Positions 4,770 to 38,349 of a stretch of 39,667 bases of DNA are shown in pieces. Each line of letters opens with the position of its first letter. Within the stretch, counting starts at the first letter, position 1. The DNA lies in IMG/VR virus record IMGVR_UViG_2645727555_000028, positions 1-39,667 of that record; one strand, written 5' to 3'. This stretch comes from a virus. Taxonomy: Duplodnaviria; Heunggongvirae; Uroviricota; Caudoviricetes. A model generated the notes under the pieces. The model worked only from the letters and a program-made list of their open reading frames with translations, did not search any database and had not been told where the DNA came from. The position numbers and the translations under genes are program-made.

Positions 4770-5818
4770 GAAATCGTCCCCAGTACCGCCAGTTCGTTTT
4801 TCGCAATGGAGATATTGTCCACCGGTGCAAGCAACTGATGGCTGTATTCCCCGTTCGCACCGGAAATCGCCTCACTGATACGCGATACCTTGAGTTCTCC
4901 CTGCGGATAACCATCACGCAGCAGGAACGAACGCAACTCCGCGGTAATGGCAGCCCGTATTTCTGGTGTGTCCGGCGTCACGCGGATATGAAAATCCACC
5001 GTATGTGCCACCGGCCTGAATACATACAAATCAGAGCCTGCCACCGGGGCCAGTGGCCAGATATGTTGTCTTGCTGCCGTTTCCGTTGATTCTTCCGGAA
5101 TGGGATTAATCAGGTCACTGCTGGCAATCATCACACCGACAGTTCCCGTTCCCATCCAGTGACGGTATGTCCATGCGCGGGTAATGCCGGGCACTTCTTT
5201 AGCCCAGACGACATAGTCCCCGTCAGCCCCGCCCTGAGGCGTCCAGTAATACCGCTCAATGACGCGGGCGCGCCACGTTTCCAGCTCTTCAGTATCAAAT
5301 CCACCTGTCAGGGTATCTGCCACGCCGGAAGACGGCAGACCATTAACCGGCGTGACCAGGATTAATGACGTACCGTCGTCAGCGTTACCGACCGCGCCTG
5401 CACTTGAGCAGGCGATCGGCACGCGCAGGACACTACCGGAGCTGGTTGCATCGGCAGTTGCCGTGTACTGAACCAGGTCATCGCGCTGAATAACACTCCC
5501 GGCGGTCACCTTCAGGCCATCGCTGACACCTTCCCAGCGCATATACCCGCTGGCAGCCGTGGCCCCCTTGCGCGGACACCGTTTCATCGCAGCATGTCGC
5601 GCCAGCCAGGACTCATCGCACAGGTCAGGCAGAATGTTCATTGCCAGATAATCGATGTACCCGTAAACCGTATGCAGCGCCGCCGCATACACCTTTGCCC
5701 GCACGTCTTCATCCATGCGCCGGAGCGTGTCGCTGACGTCCAGCCTGGCGAATAAATCGTTACGGAGCATACTGATATTTTCTGCCAGCGTCGGGCGCTG
5801 AAATTCACTGTCCGCCAT
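4760..5818 (-). CDS. baseplate J-like protein (Mu gp47 family)
   Basis: 352 aa; order within the Mu-type baseplate module. Confidence 0.75.
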
Positions 5819-6233
5819 GCGTTATCGCACTCCACAGATCATCAAAAGAAATCACTACTGGTCCATCACGACGCCAGAGGGTGATACTGTTACCCAGCTC
5901 ATTAATCCCGGTGCGGTGGATATCCAGATCAATACGGGACACCACGCCGTCATCAATCATCCATTGCAGGCATTCGCGGATATATCCCCTTACCGTCTGC
6001 ACCAGCTGATTGGTCAGTTTGCTGCGCTGAAGCAGCCACAGTCGGGAGCCGTAACGGTCATTCTGTACCGCAGGCCAGGTATCCCCCCACCATCCCATCG
6101 GGACGTCGGCATTGTCATCAGGCTCCGCCCGCCGCCAGGTGAACAGGGAAATCACCACGGCGCGGGTCAGCGGATCCAGCGGTGCGCTGGCGCAGGTGCG
6201 TTTACCGTTCACCGTCAGCCACAGTTCCATCAT
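5805..6233 (-). CDS. baseplate protein, Mu gp46-like
   Basis: 142 aa; overlapping start/stop with neighbours in the baseplate operon. Confidence 0.6.
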   Translation of the reverse strand: MMELWLTVNGKRTCASAPLDPLTRAVVISLFTWRRAEPDDNADVPMGWWGDTWPAVQNDRYGSRLWLLQRSKLTNQLVQTVRGYIRECLQWMIDDGVVSRIDLDIHRTGINELGNSITLWRRDGPVVISFDDLWSAITHGGQ

Positions 6234-24318: not shown

Positions 24319-25071
24319 TTATCTCGTCACTTTTCTTAATTGCGCCTCAGCATATGCTTCTTCCTGCCAGCACTTTGTCACCAGTTTATCAATGACATCT
24401 GCATATCCTTTGTACCACTGATAATCCGTCAGGTCTGGTACCAGCTTCTGGACATGATGCCGCGCCAGTGTGGTTGGTAAACGGCTAAACCGGTTTCCAT
24501 TGCAACGCCCACAAATCTTATAAACAGGCGTGCCATGAAGCCGGGTCCTTTTTTCATCCAGGACAATACCTTTACCCTTACACCCTCTGCACGCTGTGCT
24601 GACTTCTCCCTTACCATGACAATGCTGACATAGTTCCTTCACCCACTCCTCCTTGATAACAGATTCCCCGCTTCTGGAGTGTTTCACCACTTCGCGCAAT
24701 ACATTATGAAATCCAGTACCAGCACAATGCTCACAACGAGCCTTACTTGCCGCAGACCTGGAATAATCAGCAAAGGCAAAATTCACAAGGTAAGAAATGA
24801 TCTGTAGCCGGGTTTCTTCACTCAATTTGTTCAATGTCAGGTTATCCAGTGCCATCGCGTAATTGAGCAGACCTTCAATCGCAAACTGAGGATCCTGAAC
24901 ACCAACTTTTGCCAGGAATAAGGCAAACCCAAGCGGTGCTTTCGACTGCACCATCCCCTGCGCAGCCATCACATCCGTAATCGTTAAACCACCCGAGCCT
25001 GTCGCCGGTGCGTCATCGCTCAGTTTTGGAGATTTTGGGGAGTAATATTTTGGTAAGGCTTCAAGGTTCAT
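24319..25071 (-). CDS. late-gene antitermination protein Q-like
   Basis: 250 aa with a Cys-rich zinc-binding region (CEHCAGTG...CQHCHGKG...CRGCKGKG); position just upstream of the lysis genes. Confidence 0.7.
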   Translation of the reverse strand: MNLEALPKYYSPKSPKLSDDAPATGSGGLTITDVMAAQGMVQSKAPLGFALFLAKVGVQDPQFAIEGLLNYAMALDNLTLNKLSEETRLQIISYLVNFAFADYSRSAASKARCEHCAGTGFHNVLREVVKHSRSGESVIKEEWVKELCQHCHGKGEVSTACRGCKGKGIVLDEKRTRLHGTPVYKICGRCNGNRFSRLPTTLARHHVQKLVPDLTDYQWYKGYADVIDKLVTKCWQEEAYAEAQLRKVTR

Positions 25072-29714: not shown

Positions 29715-30053
29715 CTATTTCCCTGAATTTACGACGAAACTGTTCGAGCGGGCTGAAGCACTCATGCTCATAGCCTTCGCGGAGGTAGATAACCCGTTGT
29801 GTTTCCGGTTCCCAACGAATGACTCTGACGGGCACTCCGTAGTGATCTTTGAACCAGCGGTTAACTTGTCGCAAAGGACTGTCTCCTTCTGCCGGTTGAA
29901 ATCACCCACAGCCCACTCTGCAAAGCTGTGGGTTACAATTTCCCTGTCACCTGGTACATTTACTGCATAGCAATACTCCACCTTCGCTTTTCCACCCGGT
30001 ACAGGAAGCGCAATCAGTTGCGAGCGACGGTAGTGTGTTGTTAAACTGTTCAT
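29715..30053 (-). CDS. hypothetical early protein (YmfM-like by position and size)
   Basis: 112 aa; between the CII-position gene and the replication gene; stop overlaps the upstream ORF start. Confidence 0.45.
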
Positions 30054-30613
30054 GCGTTAGTTTCTCCACATACACAAAACGCCACGACGCCCGGAGCTGC
30101 ACACTCGCGGGCGTCACTCTTTTCTGGAGCGCAAAAGATTTTGTAGACCAGTGCTGCATGCTCCTGGAGCTTCGAAATTGACAGATACAACTCATCATTA
30201 ATTGCTGTCTGCTCGTGTGGCTCCACTACCCCATCTTCGATTGCCGAACGAATCTGCTTTGAGTAACTCCCGATCTGTTCGATGACTTCCAGCAGGCGCT
30301 GGTTTATATCGGCGTTCTCTACTTCCTCAATTTCAGGAAGCGATACAAACACCCCATCAGCAGACTGTGCGACAGCATCCGCAATGTAGTGAGTGCCAGC
30401 CGCGCGCTGTAAAATCATTGCCCATCCCAGCGGGAAAATCTGATCGCCATCTGCACGAAGGCGGTTGAATAAAGCGTTCTCTGTTACATCCAGCCACTCA
30501 GCAGCTTCAGCGTAACCCCCCGGCAACGCCGCGATAGTTTTTCTGACAGCTTTCACGTACCACTCAGGCTGTTTTTCTACTTTCCAGTGATGCTTACCCA
30601 CGGTTAGCCTCAT
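30050..30613 (-). CDS. early regulatory protein at the CII position (YmfL-like)
   Basis: 187 aa; first gene downstream of cro. Confidence 0.5.
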
Positions 30614-30644
30614 CGTTCTGTGGTTAAAAATTGAAGGTGTTCTG

Positions 30645-30845
30645 TTAATCTTTCGGATAGATATCCGGTCTTAAGTCAGATTTCGTAATTGCACCTGACG
30701 TGCATTGCTCAAGTTTTTTAGCCAGCACAAAACTGGCTTTTTTATAACCATTGAAAACCAGCCGTAAGTAGCCTGGTGTTGAGCCAACTTTTCCGGCCAA
30801 CTCGCCCTGCTGTTCTTTGGTTAAAGAGTCCCAATACGCTTTCAT
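30645..30845 (-). CDS. cro: Cro-like repressor
   Basis: 66 aa (MKAYWDSLTKEQQGELAGKVGSTPGYLRLVFNGYKK...), divergent from the CI gene across the operator region; the longer 167-aa ORF would run through the operators. Confidence 0.8.
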   Translation of the reverse strand: MKAYWDSLTKEQQGELAGKVGSTPGYLRLVFNGYKKASFVLAKKLEQCTSGAITKSDLRPDIYPKD

Positions 30846-30848
30846 ACA

Positions 30849-30919
30849 ATATGTACCTCCGATATACATATTACATGATTGAGATGAACCTTCAAGATAC
30901 TTGTACCCTATCGGTACAA
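30849..30919. promoter_or_regulatory. OR-like operator region with two palindromes
   Basis: ATATGTA-N9-TACATAT at 30849-30871 and TTGTACC-CTATC-GGTACAA at 30901-30919, between the divergent cro and CI starts. Confidence 0.6.
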
Positions 30920-30935
30920 AGGTTTTAATTTCGTT

Positions 30936-31610
30936 ATGAAAACAGTCCATGACATCCGGCGGTCTAACGCCAGAAAACTGAGAGATGGTGTTGGCGGGAA
31001 TTCTTCCTTTGCCACCATGATTGATCGCGAGCCAACCCAGACCAGCAGGTTTATGGGAGATGGTGCTACTAAAAATATCGGTGACAGCATGGCACGGCAC
31101 ATCGAAAAATGTTTCGACCTGCCTGTCGGATGGCTTGATCAAGAACACCAGACAACAAACATCACAAAAAAACCTGATGTTTCAATTACTAACAAACAAA
31201 TAACGTTAGTCCCTGTCATATCATGGGTACAGGCCGGAGCATGGAAAGAAGTTGGCTATTCTGAGGTTGATTTGAGCACAGCAGAAACTTATCCCTGCCC
31301 TGTACCCTGTGGCGAAATGACTTATATCTTGCGGGTGATTGGTGATTCAATGATTGATGAGTACCGCCCGGGAGACATGATTTTTGTAGATCCTGAAGTC
31401 CCTGCCTGCCACGGTGACGACGTTATTGCATTGATGCACGATACAGGCGAAACCACCTTTAAGCGGTTGATAGAAGATGGAACACAGCGTTACCTCAAAG
31501 CATTAAACCCAAACTGGCCTGAACCTTACATTAAGATCAACGGTAATTGCTCTATAATTGGTACAGTAATTTTCTCAGGAAAACCAAGAAGATACAAAAT
31601 AAAGGCCTAA
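30936..31610 (+). CDS. CI-type prophage repressor with C-terminal S24 (LexA-like) peptidase domain
   Basis: 224 aa; N-terminal HTH region; C-terminal VIGDSM...GD.IFVDP self-cleavage domain; e14 CohE-like. Confidence 0.85.
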   Translation: MKTVHDIRRSNARKLRDGVGGNSSFATMIDREPTQTSRFMGDGATKNIGDSMARHIEKCFDLPVGWLDQEHQTTNITKKPDVSITNKQITLVPVISWVQAGAWKEVGYSEVDLSTAETYPCPVPCGEMTYILRVIGDSMIDEYRPGDMIFVDPEVPACHGDDVIALMHDTGETTFKRLIEDGTQRYLKALNPNWPEPYIKINGNCSIIGTVIFSGKPRRYKIKA

Positions 31611-31621
31611 TCAATATTTAT

Positions 31622-31645
31622 AACCTGCTTCGGCAGGTTTTTTTA
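31622..31645 (+). terminator. intrinsic terminator downstream of the repressor gene
   Basis: acctgc-ttcg-gcaggt hairpin followed by a 7-T run. Confidence 0.7.
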
Positions 31646-31648
31646 TAC

Positions 31649-31682
31649 TTGACAATGTACCCTTGAGATACATAATGTATCT
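31649..31682 (+). promoter_or_regulatory. PL-like promoter with overlapping operator palindromes
   Basis: TTGACA at 31649-31654, CATAAT at 31671-31676; overlapping palindromes ATGTA-N9-TACAT (31655-31673) and the perfect 17-bp AGATACATAATGTATCT (31666-31682). Confidence 0.55.
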
Positions 31683-32114
31683 AAAAGAAACATGTCACAG
31701 GCAAGATTAAACAAAATTTGGTTGTAACACGGCGTATGGCACATGCGTCGTTAGCGGTCTGGGGACGTTAAAGGGGACAATCCACTCCTTGCTCGGGCAA
31801 ACAAACCAGGTAGCCGGAATGTGCAAGTCAATGATGATGCTGATAAGACGCCTAACCAGCGTGGCGATTCGGTTTGACGCCTGGGAAGAGACCAGGGTGC
31901 AACGATGAGGGCATTTATGGAACCGCGACAAAGTGTGGTGCCGTAACTGGCTAAGTGCTCTCAGCGTTGTGGTGAATGCGCAGGCTGATGCGCGAAAGAC
32001 ATTGCAGCTATTGCGGAAAAGAGCTGTTCGGCGGGGCAATTAAACGCCCGTGAGAGTCTGAAATAACCGCAAGCCGGAGATCAGCACCGGTCACCACAAC
32101 AGCCACTGCTTTGG

Positions 32115-32160
32115 CGGTACCAGTTTGTACACTTGCTTCCGGCTGGTACCGCTCTTTTTA
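32115..32160 (+). terminator. terminator-like hairpin in the early-left leader
   Basis: 10-bp perfect stem gcggtaccag/ctggtaccgc with an 18-nt loop, followed by tcttttta. Confidence 0.5.
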
Positions 32161-32296
32161 CAAAACAGAGAAGAGCATCACCGGACGACGGGCTCATAAC
32201 CCAATCCATCCGGGCGGCTGCCACCGCAGGTGTTCTTCTCTGTTTTGTGGAGAAACCAACCGACCTTGCAGGGTCGATATGATGAGGAGCAGCAAA

Positions 32297-32659
32297 ATGG
32301 CTAGCGAACGCAGTACTGATGTGCAGGCATTTATCGGGGAGCTGGACGGCGGCGTATTTGAAACCAAAATCGGCGCAGTTCTCAGTGAGGTCGCTTCCGG
32401 TGTGATGAACACGAAAACCAAAGGGAAGGTCTCACTCAATCTGGAAATCGAACCATTTGATGAGAACCGTGTGAAAATCAAACACAAACTCTCATATGTT
32501 CGCCCGACTAACCGCGGGAAAATTTCCGAAGAAGACACCACCGAAACGCCGATGTATGTCAATCGCGGTGGTCGACTGACTATTCTGCAGGAAGACCAGG
32601 GACAATTACTGACTCTTGCCGGTGAGCCTGACGGAAAACTCCGCGCAGCAGGTCATTAA
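32297..32659 (+). CDS. hypothetical early protein (first gene of the early-left operon)
   Basis: start placed at the ATG preceded by GAGGAG (MASERSTDVQ...); the longer ORF from 32111 would overlap the terminator hairpin. Confidence 0.5.
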   Translation: MASERSTDVQAFIGELDGGVFETKIGAVLSEVASGVMNTKTKGKVSLNLEIEPFDENRVKIKHKLSYVRPTNRGKISEEDTTETPMYVNRGGRLTILQEDQGQLLTLAGEPDGKLRAAGH

Positions 32660-32724
32660 TATCGTTCTTAATTAACTGATTATTTATCTCATCACTGAAT
32701 ATCTTAATATAGTGAGGACTTATT

Positions 32725-33549
32725 ATGTCTCAGAACTTAGACGCAACCGCAATTAATCAAATCCATGCCCTTATTTCTGCTCAGGGTGTTAATGAAATTA
32801 TCAGTAAGATTGGTGCCGATGCTGTGGCATTGCCTGAGAATTTCCGCATTCATGATCTGGAAAAATTTAATTTAAATCGCTTCCGTTTCCGTGGTGCGCT
32901 TTCCACTGCCAGTATCGATGACTTTACCCGTTATTCTAAAGATCTTGCAGATGAAGGCACCCGCTGCTTTATCGATGCCGATAATATGCGTGCCGTCAGT
33001 GTGCTTAACCTGGGTACTATTGATGAACCAGGTCACGCAGATAACACCGCCACTCTCAAACTGAAAAAGACAGCACCGTTCTCTGCTCTGTTGTCTGTTA
33101 ACGGCGAGCGTAACTCCCAGAAGTCACTGGCAGAATGGATTGAAGACTGGGCCGACTACCTTGTGGGCTTTGATGCTAATGGTGACGCCATTCAGGCAAC
33201 CAAAGCGGCTGCGGCGATCCGTAAAATCACAATTGAAGCGAACCAGACCGCTGATTTTGAAGACAATGACTTCAGCGGCAAACGCTCCCTGATGGAGTCT
33301 GTCGAAGCGAAAACCAAAGACATTATGCCAGTGGCATTTGAATTTAAATGCGTTCCGTTTGAAGGCCTGAAAGAACGTCCGTTTAAATTACGCCTCAGCA
33401 TTATCACTGGCGATCGTCCTGTACTGGTTCTGCGCATTATTCAGTTGGAAGCATTGCAGGAAGAAATGGCTAACGAATTTCGTGATCTGCTTGTTGAGAA
33501 ATTCAAAGACAGCAAAGTAGAAACCTTTATTGGTACTTTCACCGCCTGA
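32725..33549 (+). CDS. yfdQ: YfdQ-family (DUF2303) protein
   Basis: 274 aa; length and sequence character match my recollection of CPS-53 YfdQ. Confidence 0.55.
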
Positions 33550-33677: not shown

Positions 33678-34214
33678 ATGTCATTTATTAAAACTTTTTC
33701 CGGGAAGCATTTTTATTATGACAGGATAAATAAAGACGACATCGTGATTAACGATATCGCAGTTTCCCTTTCAAATATCTGTCGCTTTGCAGGACATCTT
33801 TCACACTTCTACAGTGTCGCCCAGCATGCGGTGCTTTGCAGCCAGCTGGTGCCGCAGGAATTTGCTTTTGAAGCGTTAATGCATGATGCAACAGAAGCAT
33901 ATTGCCAGGACATCCCCGCGCCACTGAAACGACTTCTTCCTGACTATAAACGGATGGAAGAAAAAATAGACGCCGTAATCCGTGAGAAATACGGGTTACC
34001 TCCTGTTATGAGCACGCCAGTGAAATATGCCGATCTCATTATGCTGGCAACCGAACGCCGCGATCTCGGGCTTGATGATGGCTCTTTCTGGCCTGTACTG
34101 GAAGGCATCCCGGCAACAGAGATGCTCAAAGTTATTCCACTGTCACCAGGCCATGCCTACGGGATGTTTATGGAACGTTTTAACGAGTTATCGGAGTTAC
34201 GCAAATGCGCATGA
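33678..34214 (+). CDS. yfdR: HD-domain 5'-deoxynucleotidase, YfdR-like
   Basis: start at MSFIKTF...; H..H and D motifs (HLSHFYSVAQHAV...LMHDATEAY). Confidence 0.6.
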   Translation: MSFIKTFSGKHFYYDRINKDDIVINDIAVSLSNICRFAGHLSHFYSVAQHAVLCSQLVPQEFAFEALMHDATEAYCQDIPAPLKRLLPDYKRMEEKIDAVIREKYGLPPVMSTPVKYADLIMLATERRDLGLDDGSFWPVLEGIPATEMLKVIPLSPGHAYGMFMERFNELSELRKCA

Positions 34215-34732
34215 ATGTTTTCGAAATGGAAGGGTTTCTTCGCGGGAAATGTGTACCGCGAGATCTGAAAGTGAACGAAACAAATGCTGAGTACCTGGTA
34301 CGTAAGTTCGACGCGCTTGAAGCTAAATGCGAGACGCTGGCGGCGGAGAATGCGGGGCTGAAACACGCAATGGCCGTAACTCTTGAGCATGTGTCGGTCA
34401 CGGATGCAGGGCAGGCTGGTGTTGCTGCAATGATTATCAACGATGCCCTACACCACAGCGAAACTCCAGCTACCGATGCTTTTCTGGCTGAAATTCGTGC
34501 GGAAGCACGCAACGAGGGGATTAACTATACCGCAAGTCGTCTTGCTGCTGCTTTCAACCACGGATTTATCAATAAGTCTTTACGTGAAGTTTTCGACGTT
34601 ACGCGCATGATTCTGTCAGCGAAAGAAGAGTTGGCTAATGAACCGCACCCGATTGATGGCCTGTCCGGTGAATATGCGGAGAAATCCCTTGAAGAATGGG
34701 CGGAACAGATTCGCAAAGGAGCTGACAAGTGA
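34205..34732 (+). CDS. hypothetical early protein
   Basis: 175 aa; overlapping start and stop with neighbours. Confidence 0.45.
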   Translation: MRMNVFEMEGFLRGKCVPRDLKVNETNAEYLVRKFDALEAKCETLAAENAGLKHAMAVTLEHVSVTDAGQAGVAAMIINDALHHSETPATDAFLAEIRAEARNEGINYTASRLAAAFNHGFINKSLREVFDVTRMILSAKEELANEPHPIDGLSGEYAEKSLEEWAEQIRKGADK

Positions 34733-35139
34733 AGAAGATGATTTTTGTGGCGGCATTGCTGACCATTACCCAACAGGTGCAGGCTTCAGCAGTTATTGTG
34801 GCATCTACCGCCGCGACCACGGCTGCTGTAGCTGCTGCGAACTCTGCGAATATCGCAAACCAACAGTCACAGCGTGCTGCCAATGCATCAGCCAGTGTTC
34901 ACCCAATCGCCATTAAGACCGGCAAGAAAAATATAGGTTTCATAACATGCGGCAAACGTTCTGGCGAGGCTGTAGGTTCACTTGGATGTACGGTATATGA
35001 GGGTAGTGAGAGTAGAGAAATTCCATGGAAAACGTGGCCCGGATATGTTCTCGGCTCGAAGCTCCCTGCCAGCTATGAAGTAAACGCCGTATCGTTTGAT
35101 CACTATAACGGCGTGGCAACGGTCTATTTTGCATATTGA
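34729..35139 (+). CDS. secreted protein with signal peptide and Ala/Thr-rich low-complexity region
   Basis: N-terminus MKKMIFVAALLTITQQVQA then AVIVASTAATTAAVAAANSANIAN... Confidence 0.55.
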   Translation: MKKMIFVAALLTITQQVQASAVIVASTAATTAAVAAANSANIANQQSQRAANASASVHPIAIKTGKKNIGFITCGKRSGEAVGSLGCTVYEGSESREIPWKTWPGYVLGSKLPASYEVNAVSFDHYNGVATVYFAY

Positions 35140-35408
35140 GGCTCCGCATGAAATTCTCCAAATTTTCTGAGTTGGTGAATCGTATTTTGTCCAACAACCA
35201 CAGCCATCGTCGCGATATGGATGTAACGATCGTTGTTCATTCGCCTGGCAGCATTGGTTCAACACCCTCAGTTGAGGTTCAGTCAATTCACGCTGGTTTT
35301 GATTGGGATTCCGGGAAAGTGCTGATTTTCCCAGCACAGCCACTGACCACGCTAACACCAGAACAGATTACTGATATTACTGATAGTGTGCGCAAAGGTC
35401 AGTCCTAG
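35136..35408 (+). CDS. hypothetical protein (90 aa)
   Basis: ORF with overlapping start in the operon. Confidence 0.4.
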   Translation: MRLRMKFSKFSELVNRILSNNHSHRRDMDVTIVVHSPGSIGSTPSVEVQSIHAGFDWDSGKVLIFPAQPLTTLTPEQITDITDSVRKGQS

Positions 35409-35444
35409 CACGCATATCAGGAATACAAGAAGCATAAAGAGCAG

Positions 35445-35681
35445 TTGGAAAAATTATCGATTGAACTTGATGCTGCAAAACAGCGCATTGCAGAGTTAGA
35501 AAGTGGTTCTCAGGCACAAAAGTTAGTTGAAGCAATCATTGTTGCGATAGAAAACGAACAGGAAAGGCTTTTTGATGAAGATTACCTAATGGATTCGAAA
35601 GAATGCATTGACGTAATTCGTGAAGAAGTAAAGCGATGGAATGATTCCCGCGCCGCTGGCATTCGCATCAAAGGAGAGTGA
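35445..35681 (+). CDS. hypothetical protein (78 aa)
   Basis: acidic small ORF. Confidence 0.4.
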   Translation: MEKLSIELDAAKQRIAELESGSQAQKLVEAIIVAIENEQERLFDEDYLMDSKECIDVIREEVKRWNDSRAAGIRIKGE

Positions 35682-35682
35682 T

Positions 35683-35946
35683 ATGGCAACTTTGACAAAA
35701 AAAGAACAAGCATGGTTGAACGAATTACAGGACGTTCTTGATCGCTGTCCATCACCGAAAAAAATTGGTTTTTACACCATTGGCGATAAAAGCATTTACC
35801 TGTATGACCTGCGCCGCATGGATGAAATCATGGAGGCTCTTGATAATCGTTCGTCGATGGATTGGTGTGTTGCTGTTCATGATATGAATGCAGGGTTTGA
35901 TGAAAAGATTTTGTTCCCCTCATCAGTTGAAAGCACTGCGGGTTAA
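35683..35946 (+). CDS. hypothetical protein (87 aa)
   Basis: start placed at MATLTKK... preceded by GGAGAG; the ORF-track start 35641 lacks an RBS. Confidence 0.45.
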   Translation: MATLTKKEQAWLNELQDVLDRCPSPKKIGFYTIGDKSIYLYDLRRMDEIMEALDNRSSMDWCVAVHDMNAGFDEKILFPSSVESTAG

Positions 35947-35956
35947 GGAGTAACAC

Positions 35957-36505
35957 ATGACCACTATTACCAAAGAACGTATTGAATTGTTCATTAAAAA
36001 TCCGCTTGAAAACGGGCTTACCCGTGGTGAACAAATGGAACTGGCACGGATTGCGCTGGCATCGCTGGAAGCAGAGCCTATAAGCCAAACTTACAACTTG
36101 CCAGAATTAATCGAAGGCATGGAAGTTTCCATTGATGTAAGCACTTGTGATGCTGATTTAGGTAATCGCTATTTCGGCACCGTCACCGAGGCGTTAGAAC
36201 TTGATACAGCCAAGAATGGTTACATCCTCCTGGTTCAGGACGCAGAGCCAAACTTCGATGTAAATGGCAACTCTCCGGGAACTCCGGATAGTTGGATAAT
36301 CTGTAGTGATCGAATGCCTGAAAAGGGCCAGAACGTGCTTATTTCGGTGAATTTCGATAGCTCTCTGGTTGAACCGCTAATATGCTCCGCACGCTATACC
36401 GGAAGCACCTTTCGGCGCGGAGATGCAACGATTAAGCCGGGTAATGGTATTGAGCAAGCAACTCACTGGATGCCGCTACCGGAACCGCCGCAGGAGGTGA
36501 AGTGA
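35957..36505 (+). CDS. DUF551-domain protein
   Basis: 182 aa; C-terminal ...THWMPLPEPP typical of lambdoid DUF551 proteins. Confidence 0.6.
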   Translation: MTTITKERIELFIKNPLENGLTRGEQMELARIALASLEAEPISQTYNLPELIEGMEVSIDVSTCDADLGNRYFGTVTEALELDTAKNGYILLVQDAEPNFDVNGNSPGTPDSWIICSDRMPEKGQNVLISVNFDSSLVEPLICSARYTGSTFRRGDATIKPGNGIEQATHWMPLPEPPQEVK

Positions 36506-37077
36506 TGAACAACTTAATGATCGACCTTGAGACGATGGGGAAAAATAAGGATGCACCGATCGTTTCCATTGGCGCGGTGTTCTTCACTCCAGAAACCGGA
36601 GACATCGGACAAGAATTCTATACGGTTGTTAGCCTGGAAAGTGCTATGGGGCAAGGAGCTACACCTGACGGCGATACCATCCTGTGGTGGTTGAAACAAA
36701 GCCCTGAAGCACGAGCTGCAATCTGTATTGATGATACTTTGTCGATCAGCGATGCTCTCTCAGAACTAAATCATTTCATTAACCGGCACGCAGCCAATAC
36801 GAAATATTTAAAAGTCTGGGGTAACGGGGCCACCTTCGACAACGTAATTTTACGTGGAGCTTATGAGCGAGCAGGACAAATCTGCCCGTGGGCATACTGG
36901 AATGACCACGATGTACGCACGATCGTTACGCTTGGGCGTTCCATCGGATTCGACCCAAAAATGGACATGCCTTTCGATGGCGAACGGCACAACGCCCTGG
37001 CTGATGCCCGTCATCAGGCAAAATATGTTTCCGCTATCTGGCAGAAATTAATTCCTGCCACCAGCACAGAATTATGA
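36502..37077 (+). CDS. 3'-5' exonuclease (DnaQ-like fold)
   Basis: 191 aa; N-terminal MIDLETMG acidic motif, conserved H/D near the C-terminus. Confidence 0.65.
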   Translation: MMNNLMIDLETMGKNKDAPIVSIGAVFFTPETGDIGQEFYTVVSLESAMGQGATPDGDTILWWLKQSPEARAAICIDDTLSISDALSELNHFINRHAANTKYLKVWGNGATFDNVILRGAYERAGQICPWAYWNDHDVRTIVTLGRSIGFDPKMDMPFDGERHNALADARHQAKYVSAIWQKLIPATSTEL

Positions 37078-37113
37078 TTTTCCCGGGTGCAGCCGGTTTT
37101 GATGGAGAAAATT

Positions 37114-37395
37114 ATGAACACCTTGTTTTTACTGATGGCTGAATTCAATACCCCTAACATTGAACTCTCAGCAGTTAGCCAAAAGTACTTTGGCATGAGT
37201 CCAGCCACGGCAGAAGCAAAAGCAAACGCTTGTAAGTTGCCAGTTCCAACATATCGCATCGGCACATCACAAAAAGCAAAACGTTGCATCAATATTCAGG
37301 ATCTTGCGGAATACATAGACAAAAGACGAGAAGAAGGACGTATCGAGTGGGAACAGGTCAGAACAGGCAAACAGAAGGGCAAAGAACATCACTAA
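37114..37395 (+). CDS. PrtN / excisionase-like small DNA-binding protein
   Basis: start at MNTLFLLMAEF... with GGAGAA RBS; position at the end of the early-left operon. Confidence 0.5.
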   Translation: MNTLFLLMAEFNTPNIELSAVSQKYFGMSPATAEAKANACKLPVPTYRIGTSQKAKRCINIQDLAEYIDKRREEGRIEWEQVRTGKQKGKEHH

Positions 37396-37812: not shown

Positions 37813-38349
37813 CTACTGAGCAAATTTAAGAAAGATATCCTGCAGCTCATCAATGACTGCAGACATCACATAACCGCACTGTTCCATGCGGAAACCAAAA
37901 GACTCGTAATACTGCACCAGTTCTGGTACTGGCTCTACAATGTGGACAACTTTACATTCAACAGCTTTACAAAATATAAAAGCACTCATAAGAGTGAGTA
38001 AAACCATGCGCCCTTTCAATGGGTGAGATTCATCTTCTCTAGAAAACCTTTCGATCATATGGATACGAAAGATGTTTTCTTCAACCCCATAAACACAAAT
38101 TGCTGCTCCTGATGGTATTCCCTGAACCCGACCTTGCTGAACAAGTTTTATGCAGAACTCATACTTTTCTCTGGAGTTGCCATAGGTGCTTAACGCATAG
38201 TCCCATTCAAGCTCACCATAGCCACCACACAGAATCTTGTAATCATCATCACTGAGCGGACCAACAGCAAGAGGTAAGCCGACATGATCAATAATCAACT
38301 GGATATTGTTACGTACAGATTGACCTATCTCGTCTAGGGTAAGCATCAT
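37813..38349 (-). CDS. cargo protein, possibly GNAT-fold acetyltransferase-like
   Basis: 178 aa; AT-rich; ...PLKGRMVLLTL... and ...VQYYESFGF... loosely resemble GNAT motifs A and B; own promoter-like TATAAT upstream. Confidence 0.35.
   Translation of the reverse strand: MMLTLDEIGQSVRNNIQLIIDHVGLPLAVGPLSDDDYKILCGGYGELEWDYALSTYGNSREKYEFCIKLVQQGRVQGIPSGAAICVYGVEENIFRIHMIERFSREDESHPLKGRMVLLTLMSAFIFCKAVECKVVHIVEPVPELVQYYESFGFRMEQCGYVMSAVIDELQDIFLKFAQ

Follow-up and report, generated by a model that had tools for sequence, protein, structure and literature searches.

The window analysed here (the whole of a 39,667-nt stretch, IMG/VR record IMGVR_UViG_2645727555_000028) stems from a lambdoid prophage that by BLAST resembles SfV, cdtI, mEp460 and Ayreon, and we centre on the approximately 0.65 kb (31646-32296) that lie between its cI-like repressor gene (30936-31610, plus strand) and yfdP, the first gene of the early-left operon. 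The evidence gathered below supports a leader whose plus-strand transcript is a structured non-coding RNA, conserved with covariation, and its sequence reads as a mosaic of separately conserved RNA modules rather than one element. We lean, with rather modest confidence, towards seeing in it a dicF-type polycistronic non-coding RNA locus that heads the early-left operon and would yield processed, trans-acting small RNAs (sRNAs).

The upstream border of the leader is formed by the intrinsic terminator of the cI-like gene (the records of phages Ayreon and SfV also call it a terminator), after which the original prediction had placed a sigma-70-like promoter overlapped by operator palindromes. Both were found (Table 1): TTGACA-16-CATAAT is the top promoter-like site within 30500-32800, and one operator lies between its -35 and -10 elements. 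Exact copies of TGTA-N9-TACA occur only three times in the 39.7-kb window (at 30852, 30902 and 31656), all of them in the immunity region, where the first two lie in the divergent cI/cro control region; a further copy at 31676, with one mismatch, overlies the -10 element and the probable start site at about 31683.

Table 1. Features of the leader and its borders; positions are counted from the first letter of the window.
Feature	Position	Strand	Remarks
Intrinsic terminator of the cI-like gene	31622-31646	+	7-bp GC-rich stem, then TTTTTAT; context, outside the RNA locus
PL-like sigma-70 promoter	-35 TTGACA 31649-31654, 16-nt spacer, -10 CATAAT 31671-31676	+	11/12 consensus
Operators TGTA-N9-TACA, 17 bp	31656-31672 and 31676-31692	+	palindrome scan of the window
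Module A/B	31716-31900	+	highly conserved RNA segment; hairpin ACGGCG...CGUCGU and several variable hairpins
H1	31899-31970	+	long near-perfect hairpin ending exactly at the 5' edge of the cassette; -33.3 kcal/mol, z = -4.6
Motif C cassette	31966-32100	+	closing stem 31968-31974/32092-32098, AAU linker
Motif C hairpin 1	31978-31993	+	loop GGCUGA
Motif C variable domain	31994-32072	+	
Motif C hairpin 2	32073-32091	+	loop AGAUCAGCA
Motif C loop-loop kiss	31984-31988 with 32081-32085	+	5 bp, covarying
DicF-position terminator hairpin, UUUGGCGGUACCAGUUU ... CUGGUACCGCUCUUUUU	32110-32159	+	stem 32113-32125/32140-32152, U-run 32153-32159
H2	32159-32249	+	three-way junction, 21-bp outer stem, inner hairpin 32189-32202, second variable hairpin
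Small hairpin	32261-32276	+	sequence reading
Shine-Dalgarno GAGGAG	32285-32290	+	sequence reading
yfdP ATG	32297	+	sequence reading

The leader is GC-balanced (0.515 vs 0.51 for the window) and, as had been claimed, holds no credible open reading frame (ORF): every frame carries at least three stops, the longest open stretch (110 codons) runs on the minus strand, and the six leader ORFs have no Pfam match. Missed small proteins or a frameshifted gene could be argued for from ORFs of 110 (minus strand), 49 and 47 amino acids, from two matches to PHROGs of unknown function, and from the hypothetical ORFs annotated here in Ayreon, SfV and P1 (plp and upl). We consider this explanation highly improbable, as the annotated ORFs vary between phages and strands, the variation is compensatory in stems and not codon-periodic, and the cassette swap described below replaces the start and first codons of the 110-amino-acid ORF while leaving the flanks at least 99% identical. 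The PHROG matches are confined to two mutually overlapping leader ORFs on opposite strands (32133-32282, plus, and 32081-32224, minus), the latter covering only positions 88-127 of a 162-position profile; together they look like annotation noise on conserved DNA. The families concerned (phrog_33599 and phrog_3651) match opposite strands of one conserved non-coding DNA, and may themselves derive from spurious ORF calls.

A search of Rfam, which had been proposed along with the original prediction, gave no leader match above chance level: the window was scanned in full at gathering thresholds and in three narrower searches at E <= 10, and all that came up were snoRNAs, miRNAs and, over the cI terminator, STnc370 and STnc50. 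The last two, both Salmonella sRNAs, matched the minus strand across the cI terminator and promoter (31612-31685) with 22-24 bits (thresholds 54-55), most likely driven by the cI terminator hairpin alone. ARAGORN found 0 tRNA genes in the window, and no Rfam tRNA match fell in the leader. The literature searched holds no description of the motifs reported here, which may be contained in a catalogue of some 10,000 candidate viral structured RNAs (PMC10690425).

BLAST recovered the leader stretch from 178 phage records and from 3022 of 5426 complete E. coli genomes, and revealed that its parts occur independently of each other. Homology with phages of other immunity regions starts at approximately 31710; on P1-like plasmids, 31716-31827 recurs directly after tRNA-Ile2 and upstream of dnaB/ban, while 31953-32101 recurs, at 96% identity, between tRNA-Thr and tRNA-Ser. 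Instead of the single leader element originally envisaged, we thus find an array of independently mobile modules (also present in P1 tRNA clusters and in late-operon leaders), of four types: module A/B, long H-type hairpins, a cassette closed by GUUGUGG.../...CCACAAC, and a terminator hairpin. The late leader of the window prophage itself yielded no motif C, H-type hairpin or put element.

The cassette of the window, motif C, is the module whose structure is best documented. Its pattern (GGTGAATGCRCAGGCTGATG) was found in at least 120 IMG/VR contigs (118 distinct cores), with conserved ends enclosing a middle that is unrelated in sequence between copies and measures 27-267 nt (median 68). When the conserved ends of 68 distinct copies were compared with the proposed structure, 96% of the cells were paired and 11 pairs had changed on both sides, values that 0 of 500 shuffles reached (slid-partner controls were 27-50% paired). 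Alignment columns 3-9/46-52 are paired in all 68 copies, and the next two outward (columns 1-2) in 50-68%; as copies were chosen for at least seven closing pairs, this constancy is partly by construction, but the pair types still covary. The 5-bp 3' hairpin abuts the closing strand with zero spacer, and together with the 7-bp closing stem it has the acceptor/T-stem geometry of a tRNA. The loops of the first and last hairpins appear to kiss: when copies with a different first loop were sought and their second loop then read, the two covaried (GUCGA/UCGAC at three loci, UGCGA/UCGCA, GUUGA/UCAAC). The G.U pairs of the motif C stems correspond to A.C mismatches on the opposite strand. The covariation across related phages that had been suggested as a check was indeed present, in motif C, in its loops and in H2.

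Motif C was recognised neither by ARAGORN nor by the Rfam tRNA model, and no Rfam 15 family matches it. Other identities were considered and set aside: the YrlA model scores true tRNAs only; C4 (RF01695) is found at 70.7 bits elsewhere in a P1-like plasmid and is absent from the window; and the STnc100 model (RF02076, threshold 47 bits) has no match on 31940-32170 at E <= 10. An 8-9-nt match between the variable domain and the region of the terminator U-tract (noticed by eye and self-BLAST) was treated as chance, and not as an antisense target.

The 5' half of motif C occurs in 199 phage records (62 from Klebsiella, 53 from Escherichia, 36 from Pseudomonas, and including P1, D6, PY54 and HK629). 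Phage tRNA genes lie near it in 15 of the 60 loci scanned (on the same strand where checked), and of 44 contexts examined for the following gene, about 10 have a holin, 2 have YfdP, 2 an N-like gene, and the others TerB, HNH or the small terminase. Judged from these contexts, motif C is a general inhabitant of phage operon leaders and not specific to PL.

The position of the cassette is what ties the leader to dicF. The 62 distinct full-length leader copies fall into two groups, the second of which (Ayreon-type) keeps at least 99% identity with the window except in the interior of the cassette closing stem; there, an unrelated 115-nt cassette replaces the interior of motif C. In phage P1, the C1-controlled Pban promoter is followed by a cassette of the same kind next to an annotated 'dicF-like region', and we therefore compared the dicF locus of the Qin prophage. 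The Ayreon-type cassette is the one found ahead of DicF in Qin (89.5% identical over 124 nt, E = 7e-44), where the ydfC-dicB spacer is ordered as long hairpin, cassette, DicF (76.7 bits with the Rfam model), STnc100-like module (38.8 bits) and dicB. The STnc100-like module of Qin is tRNA-shaped and lies unannotated between DicF and the dicB start (1565-1705 of the Qin record of E. coli SK1144, L445). The cassette common to Ayreon and Qin, a second cassette type (GUUGUGGCAAUCCGCGAAAUGGCGCGG ... CAGGUUGACCAUACGC...), was located at 1369-1483 of that same record, in the leader slot of Ayreon (L001) and at approximately 1410-1510 of our P1 record (L444), and its first and last loops (AUGG and CCAU) could kiss as well.

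In the window, the slot occupied by DicF in Qin holds the hairpin for which the original prediction had given a 10-bp stem and a T-run. The hairpin is real (a 13-bp stem directly followed by UCUUUUU; -21.2 kcal/mol, z = -4.3), it has the build of an intrinsic terminator, and SfV carries a terminator annotation at this place; a simple terminator scanner missed it, as its loop exceeds 8 nt. What has changed is its interpretation, as it is a terminator hairpin following a long hairpin and a cassette in a repressor-controlled prophage operon, which by position makes it the counterpart of the DicF sRNA. It matches 16 of the 17 nt of the 5' stem arm of DicF, and UUUGGCGGUAYCAGUUU and CCGCYCUUUUUA are common to both. 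A 58-nt DicF query hit no annotated feature in the four records listed.

Two long hairpins flank this unit. H1 corresponds to the long Qin hairpin, and in 57 of 76 distinct motif C copies elsewhere, folding prediction pairs the 3' end of the flank upstream, which is consistent with a long hairpin abutting motif C there too. In the account given by bioRxiv 10.1101/2023.04.14.536235 (citing Faubladier 1990), DicF is cut from the DicA-repressed dicBp transcript, RNase III yielding a 190-nt and RNase E a 53-nt RNA. Counted back from the 3' end of DicF, 190 nt reach the hairpin/cassette junction in Qin, so that the Qin equivalent of H1 sits where the RNase III product starts; in the window, the distance from the H1 base to the U-run is 190-195 nt. 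On the strength of this published processing and of the matching distances, we take H1 and H2 as likely RNase III sites.

H2 (-47.5 kcal/mol, z = -7.1) absorbs the 18-bp inverted repeat (32160-32177/32231-32248) that had been noticed before, which belongs to its 21-bp stem. The single mismatch of the repeat had been described as a G.U pair when read as plus-strand RNA, and the comparison of relatives bears this out: the pair (32175/32233) is A-U in relative L009 and G-C in L168, an alternation that argues for selection on the plus-strand RNA. The H2-type pattern ACGGGNNCATAWCCCAATC was recovered from at least 120 IMG/VR contigs (100 distinct copies); the stem on either side of the inner hairpin covaries among them (CCGGA/UCCGG, CGUA/UACG, GCGUG/CACGC), and the loop reads CUCAUAA in 68 of the 100. 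The inner hairpin itself (CGGGCUCAUAACCC) shares, without a single difference, 14 nt with the anticodon arm of the E. coli initiator tRNA (tRNA-fMet, a sequence confirmed in 5426 of 5426 E. coli genomes), including three G-C pairs and the loop CUCAUAA, and other H-type copies contain a perfect T-arm (GGGUUCGAAUCCC).

Such resemblances invite the explanation that the H2 anticodon-arm copy and the cassette are tRNA-mimic decoys, which would titrate tRNA-recognising host factors (enzymes that process or modify tRNA, anticodon nucleases such as the VapC-type toxins that cleave tRNA-fMet, or further defences aimed at tRNA) and thereby protect early development. The 14-nt identity, with features kept in 68 of the 100 distinct copies, would fit, as would the 7-bp plus 5-bp coaxial geometry of motif C with its D-loop/T-loop-like contact, the nearby phage tRNA genes (15 of 60 loci), the Tad2 anti-Thoeris gene near the motif in P1-like plasmids, and a middle domain as hypervariable as an arms race would make it. 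Yet the anticodon-like stem comprises just three pairs in another context, the modules have no NCCA end and are recognised by neither ARAGORN nor the Rfam tRNA model, no precedent was met in the literature searched, and any binding to tRNA-recognising factors would be hypothetical; we deem decoys distinctly unlikely. A broader proposal, which we would rate a little higher though still regard as speculative, is that motif C and the H-type hairpins form an undescribed and widespread class of phage tRNA mimics with arms-race-driven cassette exchange. On this speculative proposal, motif C would form a scaffold of L shape whose 'anticodon domain' is hypervariable, the H-type hairpins would bear the copied initiator-tRNA anticodon arm, both RNAs might be released from leader transcripts, early or late, by host tRNA- and rRNA-processing nucleases, and they might serve as decoys for tRNA-directed defences or translation-initiation factors.

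A more conventional possibility is that the leader works purely in cis, its terminator attenuating the early-left operon and H2, as a putative RNase III site shortly before the yfdP ribosome-binding site, tuning mRNA stability or translation in the manner of the RNase III site of the lambda N leader, with no trans function. The layout would allow it: the terminator lies about 140 nt before the first gene, the 21-bp stem ends 48 nt before the yfdP ATG, and the part most often accompanying yfdP in E. coli genomes is 32112-32320 (terminator, H2 and yfdP start). Also consistent with strong attenuation is that no transcript running from ydfABC through dicF to dicB was detected in Qin (bioRxiv 10.1101/2023.04.14.536235). 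The same modules, however, have no fixed downstream gene (the holins, N-like, TerB, HNH and small terminase genes mentioned above), motif C is found between tRNA genes in P1-like plasmids, and H-type hairpins with the same inner motif are found in tRNA clusters. Covariation, moreover, maintains kissing loops that an attenuator would not need, and the homologous DicF is a proven trans-acting sRNA, so we rate a purely cis-acting leader as rather unlikely.

Building on the modules, folds, covariation, cassette swap and positional homology to dicF described above, the dicF-type reading can be spelled out as follows. Once the CI-like repressor leaves both operators, host RNA polymerase would start at about 31683 and transcribe module A/B, H1, motif C and the DicF-position hairpin, whose U-run would terminate a fraction of the transcripts; read-through would pass H2 into yfdP, yfdQ and yfdR. 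RNase III would cut the stems of H1 and H2, and cleavage at the H1 base would free an RNA of about 190 nt, comprising the cassette and the terminator hairpin, like the 190-nt DicF product; RNase E, and possibly RNase P at the 7-bp acceptor-like stem, could trim it further. The terminator hairpin would then act in trans, as a DicF-like base-pairing sRNA with a different loop, while the cassette would provide a stable tRNA-shaped scaffold whose hypervariable domain carries specificity. The cassette slot would be swapped between phages via recombination in the conserved flanks.

Several points weigh against this reading. The loop of DicF pairs with ftsZ, and the loop of the window hairpin differs from it. 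The Rfam DicF model (RF00039, threshold 48 bits) does not report the window hairpin at E <= 10, even when 91 nt are searched. Whole-molecule duplexfold against ftsZ (-60..+60) gave z-scores of +0.6 (window RNA) and -1.2 (DicF), a test of low power even for true DicF; as it is uninformative even there, a DicF-like target is not implied. The proposed cleavages by RNase III, E and P derive by analogy from the homologous locus and from stem geometry. A 3' NCCA tail forms no consensus on motif C (just 2 of 76 copies have ACCA after the stem), and a simple terminator lies within 160 nt after motif C in 17 of 76 copies elsewhere. Homologous copies were gathered by exact sequence patterns, which limits the variation that could be observed. 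Module A/B appears to lack a convincing fold and has no assigned role, and the model leaves unexplained how the leader terminator is passed in the absence of N or put. We had also entertained that the cassette always ends an sRNA gene, and dropped this idea given the same 17 of 76 copies.

Module A/B (pattern GGTTGTAACACGGCG, in at least 120 IMG/VR contigs) also occurs in P1 and in plasmids like it, where tRNA-Ile2 directly precedes it and ban/dnaB lies downstream. RNAalifold proposed a long-range helix with weak covariation (5 of 45 pairs), which we abandoned as the fold of the module because it shows almost no covariation, and the folding z-scores were -1.8 and +0.6. At L004 (3180-3215) and other P1-like loci, AUUUUCUGGUGAUGAC, which lies between A/B and the nearby start of dnaB/ban, is similar to DicF's single-stranded 5' end (UUUCUGGUGACG).

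The original prediction had suggested 'a processing RNA or novel phage ncRNA', or a cis-acting antitermination RNA after the HK022 put model. The former part comes close to what the evidence indicates, that is, a structured, conserved and covarying plus-strand RNA; the idea of a single HK022 put-like antiterminator leader does not stand. As predicted, no N-like protein was visible, neither among yfdP, yfdQ and yfdR nor among six further plus-strand ORFs (34205-37395). For put, a covariance model was built from 17 aligned put sequences (HK022 putL and putR and the annotated HK639 putL from genomes, further ones from IMG/VR), with helices as described in PMC9378689 and rough E-values. The known elements scored 95.5 (HK022 putL), 84.7 (HK639 putL) and 52.3 bits (HK022 putR), whereas the window, searched with filters off, reached no more than 10.2 bits (E = 0.38), at a minus-strand site within yfdP; the model had no match in 31646-32296. 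We therefore rejected the leader as an HK022-type put. Module A does contain a hairpin (CGGCG...CAUGCGUCG) that repeats both strands of put stem I and the preceding CAUG, an echo that is insufficient: it has no put stem II with its GGCGGG / CGGCAAU internal loop, has U at the position of the essential put G35, where stems I and II join (CGUCG-UU-AGCG), and has no 5' strand complementary to the nucleotides after CGGCG (in put, A3-G7 pair with C15-U19). No second copy was found in the rightward operon of the window.

In collecting the put sequences, we found that canonical put-like elements (AACGGCGCG-N4-TAAACCATGCGTCGG) occur in at least 120 IMG/VR contigs (L253-L372; 62 distinct sequences) with clear covariation in the outer stem II, and put is, judging from these sequences, far more widespread than the handful of published cases. 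HK639 (L252) further has an 'M3-like RNA' annotated downstream of cII (37910-37969), besides its putL-like RNA.

Module A/B, some 33 nt after the start, might still be a new cis-acting processive antiterminator RNA, put-like in function and unrelated in sequence, that would carry RNA polymerase past the terminator at 32159 and subsequent ones. Phages such as Ayreon, SfV and mEp460 have neither N nor put, possess the leader terminator and are viable; they must get past it, and for this reason the antiterminator stays a live rival. A/B is moreover transcribed first, is very highly conserved across different immunity regions, and echoes stem I and the CAUG of put, and put-like RNA in N-less relatives has been speculated upon by others (PMC12315714). 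Against it, the put model is silent on A/B with filters off, the core of put stem II (GGCGGG / CGGCAAU) and G35 are absent, the rightward operon has no second copy, and structural covariation is weak. In P1, furthermore, A/B comes only after the dicF-like terminator, 2.3 kb downstream of Pban and with ban following immediately, a position unsuited to a promoter-proximal antiterminator. We hold this alternative to be quite unlikely.

The gene yfdP (32297-32659) matches phrog_204 (E = 1e-49), and the small hairpin before its Shine-Dalgarno sequence is not significant by itself (z = -0.9). A Q-like antiterminator gene lies at 24319-25071 (minus strand), and the rightward operon (30050-30613 and 30645-30848, both minus strand) encodes a Cro-like repressor and a CII-like (CP76) activator.

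Two observations on relatives deserve mention. In P1 (L444, AF234172), positions 2155-2724 (69472-70041 of the record), between tRNA-Thr and tciA, are annotated with the minus-strand genes plp ('putative lipoprotein') and upl, which coincide exactly with plus-strand H-type hairpins, a short cassette and motif C; going by this overlap, plp and upl are probably mis-annotated structured RNA. In plasmid pGA_Eco1 (L003), a Tad2-family anti-Thoeris gene (5628-6149) lies amid RNA modules and tRNA genes, approximately 450 nt downstream of tRNA-Ile.

About half of the complete E. coli genomes carry part of this stretch, where annotation is blank or consists of hypothetical ORFs. The dicF-type reading would give new prophage sRNAs a concrete and testable origin, and suggests that the 190-nt DicF precursor holds a structured, exchangeable cassette and not a mere spacer. 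While the dicF-type locus itself is already known, what is new here are the tRNA-shaped cassette and the copy of the initiator-tRNA anticodon arm, both well-supported and widespread RNA motifs that are new to Rfam 15 and to the literature searched.

Among known systems, the leader shares with HK022 and HK639 put a place shortly downstream from the PL promoter of an N-less lambdoid phage and the stem I sequence repeated in module A; it differs by lacking a model match, stem II with its internal loop, G35 and a rightward copy, and by an A/B module that is also found far from promoters. The lambda N leader has an RNase III site, and H2 is likewise a long hairpin that separates the early promoter from the first early-left ribosome-binding site, but H2 is a three-way junction with conserved inner motifs, and many of its copies do not precede a gene. 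C4 of P1 and P7, CI of P4 and CA of N15 are small RNAs excised from phage leaders, with RNase P acting on an acceptor-like stem. Like these, motif C is a structured RNA within a phage operon leader, closed by an acceptor-like stem; fold and sequence differ, and no a1/b1-type target repeats were seen. With tRNA, motif C has in common the continuous 7-bp and 5-bp stems and a contact between the loops of the first and last arms, whereas it escapes ARAGORN and Rfam and has no NCCA end.

A closer parallel to motif C is offered by STnc100 and PasD, Hfq-associated prophage sRNAs that have been experimentally detected (the function of STnc100 being unknown); that such relatives are real sRNAs we count in favour of the dicF-type reading. 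A comparison of the RF02076 consensus with our alignment shows equal dimensions: in both, a 7-bp stem (...GGUG/CACC...) closes the structure, AAU links it to a hairpin of 5 bp with a loop of 6 nt, the middle is variable, and a second 5-bp hairpin directly adjoins the closing strand. In P1-like plasmids, STnc100-like copies come after H-type hairpins, and in Qin after DicF. STnc100 is unlike motif C in that the 5-bp loop kiss is not evident; and in the copy of plasmid L003 (40.4 bits, compared to 38.8 bits in Qin), a U-run comes right after the closing helix, which acts as a terminator, whereas the helix of motif C has no U-run.

The ban leader of P1 differs from the window in that three tRNA genes and tciABC lie between its modules, which extend over 2.6 kb (no tRNA gene is present in the window), and in that the module region is annotated as the minus-strand ORFs plp and upl. 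It is otherwise much alike: a repressor-controlled promoter is followed by the Qin-type cassette and the 'dicF-like region', by H-type hairpins with the CAU-loop motif, by motif C and an STnc100-like module, and by A/B just before the first replication gene. The Qin dicF locus departs from the window in individual parts, as the window cassette is motif C, the loop of its hairpin is not that of DicF (on which the Rfam DicF model is silent), A/B is added upstream, H2 replaces the STnc100-like module, and yfdP stands in place of dicB. In plan, the two agree: each has a repressor-controlled promoter of the early-left type and a polycistronic RNA, and each is ordered as long hairpin, cassette closed by GUUGUGG.../...CAAC, terminator-hairpin sRNA (a candidate one in the window), structured module and protein gene.

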